A stretch of 64,000 bases of DNA from a virus (lineage: Duplodnaviria > Caudoviricetes), in IMG/VR virus record IMGVR_UViG_2974506496_000001, positions 32,001 through 96,000 of that record. The stretch is one strand, 5' to 3'. Below the pieces are notes generated by a model, which saw only the letters and a program-made list of their open reading frames with translations, searched no databases and was not told the origin of the DNA. This document shows, one piece after another, positions 31,042 to 52,496 of the stretch. The position numbers were made by a program, and so were the translations under genes. The first letter of the stretch is position 1; each line of letters starts with the position of its first letter.

Positions 31042-32964
31042 ATGACAGATAGCACTACAGCGCAGAGCCAGACCGTGACGTTAGACCAAGTCATCGCGTC
31101 AGGCGGCCAGATTGTCTTCCTGGACAATGGGCAACTGAAAAGCTTTCCTGTCTCTCAGATCACTGACTTACTGAAAAGCGGCATGTCTACTGACGTGTTG
31201 GGTCAGGCTGATTCTCTGAGTATGTTTGGTCAAGTGGAGTCGTTCGAGGCTCTACGTAAGCTTAAGCCACAGAAAGAAGGTGCACGCATCTCTCTTCGTG
31301 GCTGGAACAAAGGCAGTTGTCTGGGTGGCGGTGAGTTCATTGGTCATCTCGTCACCAAAGATCTTAAAGCCCGTCCAGATGATGGCGGTATGATTGCAGC
31401 CGGTAGCGGGTTCTTCTGGGAACGTGTGTGCTCAGATTGCGGGCAAATGAATGTCACTCACTTCGGTGCGCTTCCTGGCGCCACTGCAGCGACTGATTGC
31501 GTGCCAGCAATGACCGCCATGCTGAACTGGAGTAATGCCAACGCTGTTGGTTTAGGAATTCAATTCCCAGCCGGTACTTTCTTCGCTTCCAGTTTAAAGT
31601 TCACCAAAGAGATCGGGTATTTCCGTATCGCCGGTAACCACATCAACTTTGGTTATTTTGCTAACACGGTATTGGTGAGTGACGCTACTGAAAACTTTAT
31701 GTTGGATGTTGCGGCCCGTCGGGTTGAGTTGGCAAACATCATCTTCCGCGGTGTGAGTACTACTGAGAAGCCGAATAAGAAAGGGATCTTTAATAACATC
31801 GTCATTGGTGGTCAGTACTTCAACATGACCTGTGTGCGGTTTGAGAAAATCGGCGGGACCTGTGTTAATCTGATCGATACTCTCGATACCAAGATGACAC
31901 AATGGTACGCGTCACAATGTACTGGTGATGTGATCGTTAACAAATGGTCCGATCGTCAGGCAGGTGGCTGGAACCATACCACTGCTGTTGAAATGACCAA
32001 CTTTAACATCCAGAAGTGTGTTGGTGGTAAAGTGTTTGACATGCAGCGCTGCGCTCAGTCGTTTATCACTAATGGCTGGATCGAGCACTGTGATGATCCA
32101 GGCGACCTGTCTAATGGTCAATGGACGGTAAATGGCCTGAGTATCGAAGATTGTAAGAAACCATTAAAGGCCTCTTACGCTCGCTTTATTGAGATCCAGC
32201 GTAACCTGCAGTCCGGGTCACGAATCGACTACTCCATTGACCCAGAGCTCGAAGAGTGGCTGAGTGAATGGGAACGCGGTCGTCTGGATATCGCCAACCA
32301 CGGCATCTTCATCGACGGTACCTTAGAGCCGGGTACGATCATGTCTCGCAACAAGCTGAGCAACAGCAGCGACAAAGCGAAATGGTTCCGGGTCGGTACC
32401 TGGTACAGCCCATCTGAAGGCGACTCCATTGACATCAACCTGGTTGGTACTGGTAACTTCCTGTCGGTCGCACCAAAGCTTGATGATATCGATGGTGTGC
32501 GTCAAGGTGGCGGTAACACCCTGATCCGTGTGCAGTTGAAGAAAGACTCCGTAGGTGCGACCTTAGAACCACATGGTTCAAGTCCCCTGCAAGCGGCGAA
32601 GATTGCCAAAGTCGGTGCCGGTAAGTTTGTGATCTACGCCCAGCTGAAACCGTATACCCGTAATGTGATCCCGGTGATTGTTGCAACCGGTGCCACGCAC
32701 TACGAAGCCGGTGTCTCTTATTACTTCCGTCCGGCGATTGCCTCGATGAGTGATGAAGAGATCGCAGCAGTGCCGGATGCGGTGGTGATTGCTGAACAGT
32801 GGTCGCTCGGTCAACTGGCCGGTGTGGGCGCCACTAACGAAGGTAACCTGATGCTGAAGAGTAAGATCGTTAACGATCACTTGCAGGTACAGGTCATGGT
32901 TAGCCAAGCACAATGGGCGAAACCAGAACTTCGTTATATCGAGCTGAAGAAAGAAGCCAAGTAA
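31042..32964 (+). CDS. AmsF/WceF-like tailspike-fold glycan-active protein (putative EPS depolymerase)
   Basis: SFEALR..KP..G.RI.LRGW...GGGEF, DDGG.IA...W.R, THFGA, FPAGTF followed by a beta-helix-like region. Confidence 0.75.
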   Translation: MTDSTTAQSQTVTLDQVIASGGQIVFLDNGQLKSFPVSQITDLLKSGMSTDVLGQADSLSMFGQVESFEALRKLKPQKEGARISLRGWNKGSCLGGGEFIGHLVTKDLKARPDDGGMIAAGSGFFWERVCSDCGQMNVTHFGALPGATAATDCVPAMTAMLNWSNANAVGLGIQFPAGTFFASSLKFTKEIGYFRIAGNHINFGYFANTVLVSDATENFMLDVAARRVELANIIFRGVSTTEKPNKKGIFNNIVIGGQYFNMTCVRFEKIGGTCVNLIDTLDTKMTQWYASQCTGDVIVNKWSDRQAGGWNHTTAVEMTNFNIQKCVGGKVFDMQRCAQSFITNGWIEHCDDPGDLSNGQWTVNGLSIEDCKKPLKASYARFIEIQRNLQSGSRIDYSIDPELEEWLSEWERGRLDIANHGIFIDGTLEPGTIMSRNKLSNSSDKAKWFRVGTWYSPSEGDSIDINLVGTGNFLSVAPKLDDIDGVRQGGGNTLIRVQLKKDSVGATLEPHGSSPLQAAKIAKVGAGKFVIYAQLKPYTRNVIPVIVATGATHYEAGVSYYFRPAIASMSDEEIAAVPDAVVIAEQWSLGQLAGVGATNEGNLMLKSKIVNDHLQVQVMVSQAQWAKPELRYIELKKEAK

Positions 32965-38036: not shown

Positions 38037-39170
38037 ATGCAGTACAGTACCTTTAATACCACTAAAAACGATCAGATGGCTGAACCGATGTTCCTGGGTC
38101 AGTCGGTTAACGTCTCACGTTATGATCAGCAGAAGTACCCCGCGTTCGAAAAGCTGATTGAGAAACAACTTTCATTCTTCTGGCGCCCTGAAGAGGTGGA
38201 TGTTTCGCAAGACCGTATCGACTTCCAGGGGTTACCGGATCATGAGAAACACATCTTCGTGTCTAACCTGAAATACCAAACCCTGCTGGACTCGATTCAG
38301 GGTCGTAGTCCGAACGTGGCCCTGCTGCCGATCTGTTCTATCCCGGAACTCGAAACCTGGATTGAAACCTGGGCGTTCTCTGAAACGATCCACTCGCGCT
38401 CATACACCCACATCATCCGTAATATCTTTACTGACCCCTCCATCGTGTTTGATGACATCGTGACCAACGAACACATCAAAGCGCGTGCTGAGTCCGTCAC
38501 GGAGTATTACGACCAGCTGATTGAAATGACCATGTACCTCAACTTACTGGGTGAAGGTACTCATGTAATCAATGGTAAGAAAGTCGTGGTGTCGATGCGT
38601 GCTATCAAGCGTCTGGTCTACCTGTGCATCGTGTCAGTCAACGTGCTGGAAGCCATCCGCTTCTATGTCTCCTTTGCCTGCTCGTTTGCCTTTGCTGAAC
38701 GCGAGCTGATGGAAGGCAACGCCAAGATCATTAAACTGATCGCCCGTGATGAAGCCCTGCATCTGACCGGCACCCAGCACATGATCATGTTAATGAAGTC
38801 CGGTGCTGACGATGCTGAGATGGCGGAAATCGTTAAAGAGTGTGAAGCAGAAACATACGCACTCTTTAAGGACGCTGCAGAGCAGGAGAAAGACTGGGCG
38901 AACTATCTGTTCCAGGATGGGTCGATGATCGGTCTGAACAAAGAGATCGTGTGTCAGTACATCGAATACATCACCAACATCCGTATTCGCGCCATCGGTT
39001 ACGATGACATCTACGCCGGTGTCAAAGCTAACCCTATCCCGTGGATCAACTCCTGGCTGGTTTCTGACAACGTGCAACAAGCCCCTCAAGAGTCAGAGAT
39101 TACCTCGTATTTAGTAGGTCAGATCGACTCAACTGTCGATGCAGATGCGTTTGATAACTTCGAACTTTAA
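38037..39170 (+). CDS. nrdB: ribonucleotide reductase class Ia beta subunit
   Basis: [48 protein letters not shown]. Confidence 0.98.
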
Positions 39171-46703: not shown

Positions 46704-47084
46704 ATGAAACAGGTTGCTGCTAACGTAAATGTTCTTTCTGTTGATTATCGTTTCGGTGCTAAACAGATGGAGACCTATGCCAAGTTTATTACTGATGCGT
46801 TAACGGCGGGTCAGAAAGTCTTTATCTATGCGGATAAAGAAGCGCGGGCGAAAGTAAATGAACTCTTCCCTAAAGTCCTCGGCCAGGAGGTGATGGAGAA
46901 GGTACTTGTTCGTGCGTACCCTATTAGTGAACTGACTGCGGTTAACGTCGGGCGGGGGATGTCCAACATGTCGGCTATCTTCATCAGCGAAACCGGGCGT
47001 TATACCGATCTGATCACGAAAACGTTTTCAGTCGTCACCGGTCATGACGCACTGATTGTTGAATGCAGCGAAGTGGTGGCGTGA
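46704..47084 (+). CDS. hypothetical protein
   Basis: GAGG SD. Confidence 0.75.
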   Translation: MKQVAANVNVLSVDYRFGAKQMETYAKFITDALTAGQKVFIYADKEARAKVNELFPKVLGQEVMEKVLVRAYPISELTAVNVGRGMSNMSAIFISETGRYTDLITKTFSVVTGHDALIVECSEVVA

Positions 47085-48677: not shown

Positions 48678-49229
48678 ATGACACTGAAGAGTAATAAACA
48701 ACTGAATGCCGAGACCCCTGAACTGCGTGACTTGGTTATCGTCATTGACGGTTTGAACATCCTGGACTTGAATCTGGCACCAGGGGCCCGTGCGCCGCGT
48801 TATAGCGTTCAACTGTCAGGCGATATGGGATTGACCGCAACCAATAAACGTGCAGTGTATGGTCATGCCGCACAATTGTTAAACGCACTCCTGGAGAGAG
48901 GGTTCTCTGCCCATGCGAACGTGTCACGTGATGATCTGGACAACGACACCGCACGTGCAACTGAAATCATGCAACAGGCGATCACTTTATTGGTTGAAAC
49001 TGGTGAAGATGTTATCGTGCGTTGCCACTCTCTGTCTATTTCAGTCACCACGGTTGATTTCGACTTGACTGAACTGCGTGTCATCAGCGATGAAGCAATG
49101 GCGAAGGTCGAGTTCCTACTGGCACAGCCGGGCGAACCGTCCGAGGCGTTAACTGAGTTGATGACCGGTAAGCGTAAGTATCTCATCCGTGAAGACCTGG
49201 ATGAGGCTGCACCGCAGTCACCAATCTAG
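48678..49229 (+). CDS. hypothetical protein with DUF1778 (TacA/AtaR)-like C-terminus
   Basis: ISDEAMAKVEFLLAQPGEPSEALTELM. Confidence 0.5.
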   Translation: MTLKSNKQLNAETPELRDLVIVIDGLNILDLNLAPGARAPRYSVQLSGDMGLTATNKRAVYGHAAQLLNALLERGFSAHANVSRDDLDNDTARATEIMQQAITLLVETGEDVIVRCHSLSISVTTVDFDLTELRVISDEAMAKVEFLLAQPGEPSEALTELMTGKRKYLIREDLDEAAPQSPI

Positions 49230-49262
49230 TAATTAAATACTAGGCAGCGTAATCATATACGT

Positions 49263-49303
49263 AAAGGGGTCTGGTGAAAGCCATATCCCTTTTGGTTATG
49301 CTG
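49263..49303 (+). terminator. hairpin + TTATGCT element followed by T tract
   Basis: Imperfect AAAGGGGT.TGG/CCA.ATCCCTTT stem. Confidence 0.65.
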
Positions 49304-49399
49304 TCTTTTTTTTTTGGTTAAGAAATACTAGCCTTCTCCATTATATGCAATTTACACGATACACTTTTCTATTTACTACATCGGCAAGAGAGATAAGAC

Positions 49400-49543
49400 A
49401 TGAGCGCACCTGAAGAATTTGATATGGACGGCCTGGAATCACTGGATCTGGAAGGCGCTGAGAAAGCGGCAGAAGAGAAAGCAGCCGGCGGTGGCGAAGC
49501 CCTGTCTGATGGCGAAGCAGATTGCGAAGGTTGCAAGATCTAA
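49400..49543 (+). CDS. 47-aa acidic peptide ending CEGCKI, resembling the NrdA C-terminal redox tail (not in ORF track)
   Basis: MSAPEEFDMDGLESLDLEGAEKAAEEKAAGGGEALSDGEADCEGCKI*; purine-rich leader; codon usage like neighbouring genes. Confidence 0.8.
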   Translation: MSAPEEFDMDGLESLDLEGAEKAAEEKAAGGGEALSDGEADCEGCKI

Positions 49544-49569
49544 ATGCTGTGATGTGAATCGGGTCTGAT

Positions 49570-49896
49570 ATGGGATCAGTTAACCGAGGAAACATCACGA
49601 ACATCTATCTTGTCCAACGCAAATCAGAGCCCCGTTACACACCGGATTCATTTATCGCTGTTGCAGCATCGACCGAAGAGGTGCTGATGATTCACCCTAG
49701 CTACTTTCAGGGAAAGAACACACCTGTGAAGTTCGACGAGGCAATGGCCGCCCTCTGGGCGAATGAGTTATCCGATAGTCCAATGGATCATCAATGGGTT
49801 ACCAATAAGAACGAGCTCGAGGTCACCTATCTGGGTGAGGCTGCGATGGAGTTCACCGGCCCCACGATCATTGAGATGTGGTACGGGTACGCCTGA
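49570..49896 (+). CDS. hypothetical protein
   Basis: NIYLV......DSF.AVA.S.EE; start uncertain. Confidence 0.65.
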   Translation: MGSVNRGNITNIYLVQRKSEPRYTPDSFIAVAASTEEVLMIHPSYFQGKNTPVKFDEAMAALWANELSDSPMDHQWVTNKNELEVTYLGEAAMEFTGPTIIEMWYGYA

Positions 49897-51670: not shown

Positions 51671-51713
51671 GCGCGGAATCGTATAGGTGCTTTTGCCAAC
51701 GAGGAATCTTATC

Positions 51714-52496
51714 GTGTTTGAAATGCTTTTAGGCGGTAGTCCGAACGGGAACTTGCCATTTGGGCAGTTGTTAGCCAAAACAACAACAGACTTTACAGTT
51801 CCTGCCGGAGTGACCGATATTTCCGGTGTTGCTATCGGTGGTGGTGGTGGTAACTCACGCGGCAATACCATTGGTGGGTCAGGGGGTGATTTACGCTGGC
51901 GTAATCACATTGCCGTTATTCCAGGTGAAGTGCTGTCACTTATTACCGGTGTGGTAACAGCTGCTGGGAAACCGGGCACCTCCAGTAAGATCATCCGTAA
52001 GTCAACCGGCGAAGTATTACTGGTCGCTAAAGGCGGTGACTCCACTGATGTATCAACACCGATCAATGGAGCTGATATAGGTGGCGGGAACGGTGGTGCT
52101 GGCACCAATCCATCAGGTGGTGGTGCTGGCGGGTATACCGGCAATGGTGGTAAAGGTGGTTCAGCTGCCGATGTTGATTCTGGTGGTGGCGGTGGTGGTG
52201 GTTCTTATACCTTCAGCGGAAACAGTTTTGGTTGTGGCGGTGGTGGTGTCTACCCTAACGGTAAAGGCGCTGATGGTGGCGCACCCCCTGTCAATACCGG
52301 CAGTCAGGCGTTTGGTGGTAAAGGGGGTTCTGGTGGTAATCCTGGTCAAAACACGAATGGGGGCTTATACGGCGGCGGCGCTGGCGCACCCATTAGGATA
52401 ACCTTTGCAACAACAGGGACTGCCGGCTGCATCAGACTCATCTGGGGTTCGGGTCGTGCTTTCCCAGCTACGAAGACCGCAGATATTACAGCATAA
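51714..52496 (+). CDS. glycine-rich domain protein, putative virion/tail-associated
   Basis: FTVPAGVT.I..VAIGGGGG, GGSGG.L...N.I.V.PGE; GTG start with GAGG SD gives MFEMLL. Confidence 0.7.
   Translation: MFEMLLGGSPNGNLPFGQLLAKTTTDFTVPAGVTDISGVAIGGGGGNSRGNTIGGSGGDLRWRNHIAVIPGEVLSLITGVVTAAGKPGTSSKIIRKSTGEVLLVAKGGDSTDVSTPINGADIGGGNGGAGTNPSGGGAGGYTGNGGKGGSAADVDSGGGGGGGSYTFSGNSFGCGGGGVYPNGKGADGGAPPVNTGSQAFGGKGGSGGNPGQNTNGGLYGGGAGAPIRITFATTGTAGCIRLIWGSGRAFPATKTADITA

Follow-up and report, generated by a model that had tools for sequence, protein, structure and literature searches.

The 47-residue reading frame and its surroundings

A small open reading frame of 47 codons lies at positions 49400-49543 on the plus strand of the window, the 64,000-nucleotide stretch (positions 32,001 to 96,000 of IMG/VR record IMGVR_UViG_2974506496_000001) on which all window coordinates are based. 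It encodes a strongly acidic protein ending in DGEADCEGCKI. The window is 94–99% identical to Agricanvirus phages of Erwinia amylovora, and the 271,182-bp genome appears to be that of Erwinia phage RAY, a nucleus-forming chimallivirus reported not to degrade host DNA detectably (PMC10299810). The features of the locus are as follows.

49245 to 49315, plus strand: intrinsic terminator of the upstream gene, a long hairpin (49245-49303; fold -42 kcal/mol, z = -2.3) followed by ten T (49306-49315)
49330 to 49349, plus strand: promoter-like element, a CT-rich stretch plus a TATGC core, containing ATTATATG; a variant of the recurrent motif yCCyTTTATGCCG of this genome, its use by the phage RNA polymerase being inferred
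49386 to 49393, plus strand: purine-rich, Shine-Dalgarno-like tract 7 nt before the ATG (inferred from sequence)
49400 to 49543, plus strand: coding sequence of the 47-residue acidic microprotein (PHROG 10239), homologous to DM_112 and AH06_115 and to a 43-residue chromosomal protein of Erwinia
49412 to 49447, plus strand: residues 5-16, an acidic, amphipathic F-D-(L/M)-D-x-L motif, the presumed docking motif
49448 to 49489, plus strand: residues 17-30, an Ala/Glu/Lys-rich linker, predicted to be helical at low confidence
49517 to 49540, plus strand: residues 40-47, ADCEGCKI, the near-invariant Cys pair followed by Lys-Ile at the very C-terminus, resembling the NrdA tail (CESGACKI) and lying in a region predicted to be unstructured
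38037 to 39170, plus strand: orphan class Ia NrdB, expected to pair with host NrdA

The sequence ATTATATG occurs once in the window, at 49340-49347, and the promoter-like element containing it lies about 55 nt upstream of the ATG. Its TATGC core and the CT-rich stretch before it resemble the motif yCCyTTTATGCCG, which precedes 26 genes of this genome, including the neighbours at 46704, 49974, 50664, 51687 and 53990 (motif positions in the window are, e.g., about 46676, 49923, 50616, 51662 and 53893). Twenty-two upstream regions hold TTATGCC, against 1.5 expected. The motif often directly follows a GC-rich hairpin, so that terminator and promoter overlap, and is probably the promoter of the phage RNA polymerase. 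The gene at 49400 therefore appears to have its own phage-type promoter, although this is an inference, and none of the public sequencing runs listed as containing the locus is an RNA run. A neighbouring reading frame at 51687-52496 encodes 269 residues and is extremely rich in glycine, with GGxGG-type repeats.

That the 47-codon frame is coding is not in doubt. Its dN/dS is 0.09–0.39 against three sister phages, and the last eight codons vary only synonymously across 14 phage and host copies. Sister phages annotate the gene as a hypothetical protein (DM_112, AH06_115), and its product matches PHROG 10239 over residues 1-47 (E = 9.3e-30). An antisense frame of 87 codons (49341-49604, minus strand) overlaps the whole gene but was rejected as the gene because conservation follows the plus-strand frame. 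A naive longest-ORF caller picks this antisense frame instead, which may be why the gene was missing from the list of reading frames underlying an earlier note on this sequence. What that note observed, namely a genuine 47-codon frame behind a terminator, with an NrdA-like C-terminus, in a window that has nrdB but no nrdA, is confirmed. Its statement that E. coli NrdA ends in DDGCESGACKI is likewise correct.

Ribonucleotide reductase genes of the phage

No ribonucleotide reductase (RNR) large-subunit domain (PF02867 or PF00317) and no NrdD was found anywhere in the 271-kb genome, and the gene immediately upstream of the microprotein (48678-49229) shows no NrdA similarity. In contrast, the class Ia NrdB at 38037-39170 is 76.6% identical to E. 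coli NrdB and 74–77% identical to NrdB across Enterobacterales, and all iron ligands, Y122, W48, Y356 and the alpha-binding C-terminal tail are intact. This implies a hybrid enzyme of phage beta with host alpha. The Agricanvirus paper reports detection of this NrdB by mass spectrometry and notes an HNH endonuclease next to it. The genome encodes no thioredoxin or glutaredoxin (no match to PF00085 or PF00462). The microprotein itself has no Pfam match and thus no thioredoxin or glutaredoxin domain around its CxxC.

A microprotein family shared by phages and their hosts

A phmmer search of 1.8 billion representative proteins gave seven hits at E <= 0.001, six of which are family members of 44–208 residues ending in ADCEGCKI, whereas the seventh (P0007, 1274 residues) matches only the Ala/Glu-rich middle of the query. 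A search for longer homologues with the single peptide found nothing, a PDB sequence search returned only a chance low-complexity match, the ESM Atlas returned only unnamed small-protein clusters, all scoring below 0.9, and Pfam and NCBIfam gave nothing for the phage or the host peptide. Searches of IMG/VR and of the phage collection place the module in at least five Erwinia/Pantoea phage lineages: Agricanvirus; Wellingtonvirus (Wellington, Kwan); Rivsvirus (pEa_SNUABM_5, a 208-residue form); Sasquatchvirus and its relatives (Y3, Yoloswag-size contigs); and the 53-kb Loessnervirus phages of Erwinia and Pantoea (85–101 residues, ending in ESDCDGCKI). In five phage lineages the gene lies within about 3 kb of dNTP-metabolism genes, i.e., a MazG-like pyrophosphatase and thymidine kinase in RAY, thymidylate synthase and MazG in Wellington, dCMP deaminase and thymidylate synthase in Y3, dCMP deaminase in pEa_SNUABM_5, and thymidylate synthase in Loessnervirus.

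The shared module consists of an acidic F-(D/N/E)-(L/M/F)-D-x-(L/I) motif, an Ala/Glu/Lys linker, and (A/S)-D-C-(E/D)-G-C-K-I at the C-terminus. In an AlphaFold2 model the window peptide on its own is predicted to form one short helix (residues 17-30), with pLDDT 53–57 and no secondary structure over residues 31-47; its two cysteines thus lie within the last ten residues of an acidic segment predicted to be disordered. Some forms add unrelated N-terminal domains. Rivsvirus and Yoloswag-like phages (proteins P0002, P0008 and P0009, from records L003 and L012) fuse the module, through a very acidic linker of variable length, to a conserved N-terminal domain of about 60 residues that is predicted to fold as a small four-helix bundle (P0008 model, pLDDT about 85–91). 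This domain has no significant fold match in the PDB, and Pfam gave only sub-threshold hits.

A homologue is also encoded by the hosts, which the earlier note did not foresee. When four Erwinia genomes were scanned for the pattern C-x(2-4)-C-K-I-stop, only two loci recurred in all four: nrdA (CESGACKI) and a 43-codon chromosomal gene ending in CEGCKI. The product of the latter aligns with the phage peptides and matches PHROG 10239 (E. amylovora protein P0077, E = 9.8e-6). A profile search found 188 clusters, all labelled hypothetical, from Erwinia (including E. amylovora), Pantoea, Mixta, Serratia, Rouxiella, Sodalis, Budviciaceae and others, and 108 of 120 relatives end in CEGCKI. Among the genomes searched, the gene is present in 49 of 50 of the host's genus, 48 of 251 of the GTDB family and 4 of 301 of the order; a blastn search of complete E. 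coli genomes with the host gene, a weak test, found no match. The host gene stands alone in contexts that vary between genera and are unrelated to nucleotide metabolism, without a conserved partner or a toxin-antitoxin-like pairing. It has a plain sigma-70-like promoter, and a conserved AAATCAGTATAAAG element about 40–50 nt upstream in Erwiniaceae (host locus L118, 5820-5880, and the equivalent positions in L104, L107, L109 and L128) is probably its -10 region; no known regulator site was recognized. A scan for NrdR boxes upstream of nine host genes gave at best 8–11 of 16 positions, against 14 of 16 at nrdA, and hence no box.

Resemblance to the redox tail of the RNR alpha subunit

The disordered C-terminal Cys pair of class I alpha is reduced by thioredoxin or glutaredoxin and then re-reduces the active-site disulfide (PMC5704485, PMC9669993). 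NrdA tails across 79 Enterobacterales and Vibrionales end in (D/G)-C-(E/A)-(S/G)-G-A-C-K-I, although one of them (Photobacterium) ends in DDCTSCKI, i.e., CX2C followed by KI, and Erwinia NrdE ends in GCVSC(A/S)L. The peptide family shows the same alternation. Protein P0104 and the orthologues in pEa_SNUABM_3, _33 and _7 end in ECEGGGCKI or DECEGGACKI; the SNUABM_7 protein (DECEGGACKI) still matches PHROG 10239 (E = 5e-5), and the SNUABM_33 protein is 71% identical to Y3_038 but has ECEGGGCKI in place of ADCDGCKI. When aligned to the NrdA tail and compared with composition-matched shuffles, the CX4C variant P0104 reached p = 0.0004, whereas the typical CX2C members did not beat shuffles convincingly (p = 0.04 for the window peptide and 0.10–0.19 for host forms). 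Furthermore, a profile of the host family did not retrieve nrdA in Erwinia genomes at E <= 10.

A scan of IMG/VR for [DE]-C-E-x-G-x-C-K-I-stop found 27 contigs. Four encode true NrdA, and all four were detected as positive controls when the contigs were searched for NrdA. The other 23 carry the ending, including exact host-type DDCESGACKI, on proteins of 45–360 residues that are not RNR, and none of these 23 contigs, 13 of which are at least 92% complete, has NrdA. For example, a 57-residue phage protein on a 70-kb contig (L205, 1249-1419) joins a CPxC...CxxC zinc-ribbon-like N-terminus to an NrdA-type tail (SEDCEDGACKI), and other contigs carry the same tail on proteins of 123–360 residues with no family match. 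None of the 15 other carrier records tested has NrdA either. The absence of NrdA in carriers is, however, confounded by phylogeny and stands without a base rate, since a tblastn search with NrdA across all phages returned at least 5000 records.

Some carriers begin with a copy of the alpha-docking tail of NrdB. Among the IMG/VR carriers, L204 has LDFDDFEL, with a position-specific score of 19.9 that was reached by 0 of 3000 shuffles, L208 has DFDDFDL, and L202 and L220 score p = 0.009 and p = 0.013, respectively. The corresponding motif of the window peptide is only weakly NrdB-like (p = 0.11), and the host forms are not NrdB-like (p = 0.15–0.48).

Comparison with known systems

The closest known element is the C-terminal redox tail of class Ia RNR alpha itself (E. 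coli NrdA residues about 737-761, Cys754/Cys759). Both are acidic segments, disordered in NrdA and predicted to be so in the peptide, with a Cys pair followed by Lys-Ile at the free C-terminus, both occur in CX2C and CX4C forms, and some family members are almost letter-identical to real tails (DECEGGACKI against SDCEGGACKI). The peptide is, however, not attached to any RNR catalytic domain, and most family members have CX2C where the host NrdA has CX4C. The alpha-binding tail of NrdB, and the synthetic R2 C-terminal peptides that inhibit RNR by competing for that site, share an acidic D-(F/L)-x-D-F-x-L motif with the N-termini of some carriers (L204, L208, L202 and L220), but in the peptides this motif is N-terminal or internal and has no free carboxylate. 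Yeast Sml1, a small RNR inhibitor, reportedly competes with the R1 C-terminal CX2C domain (Zhang et al. 2007, listed in PMC5704485). Like Sml1, the peptide is small, predicted to be disordered, and would act at the step where the alpha tail regenerates the active site, but Sml1 is eukaryotic, is known to be inhibitory and is not known to carry a mimic of the Cys pair. PHROG 10239 and the 43-residue hypothetical protein of Erwinia, Pantoea, Serratia, Sodalis and relatives are catalogue entries without an assigned function. The Agricanvirus and RAY papers do not mention the gene, and literature searches for the motif, for tail mimics and for trans-acting tails found no description of a free-standing RNR tail.

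A putative trans-acting module

The analysis establishes that the frame is a genuine, free-standing and conserved gene for a strongly acidic microprotein with an N-terminal amphipathic acidic motif, a short linker predicted to be helical, and a C-terminus, predicted to be flexible, that ends in Cys-x-x-Cys-Lys-Ile, and that it is the phage copy of a family also encoded by its Erwinia hosts. Its separate expression, its binding to any partner and its redox activity are inferred from sequence alone, as is the proposal that the C-terminus functionally imitates the mobile dithiol tail of host class I alpha (NrdA, CESGACKI; NrdE, CVSC(A/S)L). In this view the free peptide would work in trans on host NrdA or on its redoxins, with the N-terminal motif helping it to dock. 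We hold this reading with about even confidence. Because the phage has NrdB but no NrdA and is reported not to degrade host DNA, we lean slightly towards the peptide sustaining host RNR turnover for phage dNTP supply, but a beta-tail-like docking motif could instead compete with NrdB, and the peptide may block turnover. Host NrdA and NrdE already have tails, so that the need for an extra one is not evident.

The interpretation offered in the earlier note is only partly supported. Its proposal of a separate peptide acting on host NrdA, or on thioredoxin and glutaredoxin, remains the best lead and is strengthened by the orthologues with NrdA-type CX4C tails, and the conservation of the terminal CxxCKI in relatives, on which the note had staked its reading, holds for most members. 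The split-enzyme model, in which the peptide is the detached and required tail of a phage or host NrdA that has lost its own Cys pair, rests on the tail resemblance alone here and is not supported: this genome and all carrier records checked lack NrdA, Erwinia NrdA (DDGCESGACKI) and NrdE retain intact Cys-pair tails, and the same Erwinia genomes hold full-length NrdA alongside the microprotein. For this system the model is regarded as refuted, and the peptide is not a fragment of nrdA but belongs to an independent family.

Of the remaining explanations, a redoxin decoy or trap, in which the tail is recognized by host thioredoxin, glutaredoxin or NrdH as if it were NrdA and occupies or drains these redoxins without acting directly on the RNR active site, draws on the same tail evidence, on the lack of thioredoxin and glutaredoxin genes in the phages, and on the fact that the flexible tail is what redoxins recognize (PMC5704485). 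It seems unlikely, since it does not explain the NrdB-tail-like motif of some carriers and since draining reductant would starve the host RNR on which these NrdA-less phages depend. Similarly unlikely is a metal-binding or partner-bridging role unrelated to RNR, in which the terminal CxxC would complete a Zn, Fe or Cu site with a second copy or with another protein and the likeness to NrdA would be convergent or due to chance. CxxC motifs commonly bind metals, a lone CxxC could equally do so here, the host gene has no RNR-linked context or NrdR box, and the profile and shuffle tests are weak for most members; yet this view does not predict exact NrdA-type endings such as DDCESGACKI among 23 independent non-RNR phage proteins, the CX2C/CX4C switching between orthologues, the invariant Lys-Ile end, or the absence of NrdA in the carriers. 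The N-terminal motif also looks like the FNLD box of class I lanthipeptide leaders (some members read DDFNLDAL), which could suggest the precursor of a ribosomally made modified peptide with a Cys-containing core. This is very unlikely, as no modification enzyme, transporter or protease is conserved beside the gene in the hosts or in the phages and no Ser or Thr is conserved in the putative core.

A broader reading, which can be put forward only tentatively, is that phages lacking their own RNR large subunit, and Erwinia-group bacteria themselves, deploy free-standing copies of the alpha redox tail, sometimes joined to a copy of the docking motif of the beta subunit, which would plug into host class Ia RNR and control the re-reduction step. 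If so, they would constitute a new class of RNR accessory factor and a new way for viruses to take over dNTP synthesis. Re-reduction of the RNR active site by the enzyme's own C-terminal tail can limit the rate of dNTP synthesis, and a diffusible tail, whether supplied by a virus or by the cell, would be a previously unrecognized control point. It would also provide natural peptide ligands for bacterial RNR, and it could explain how large phages without RNR, or with only NrdB, secure enough dNTPs, and what a core 43-residue protein of the fire-blight genus Erwinia does.
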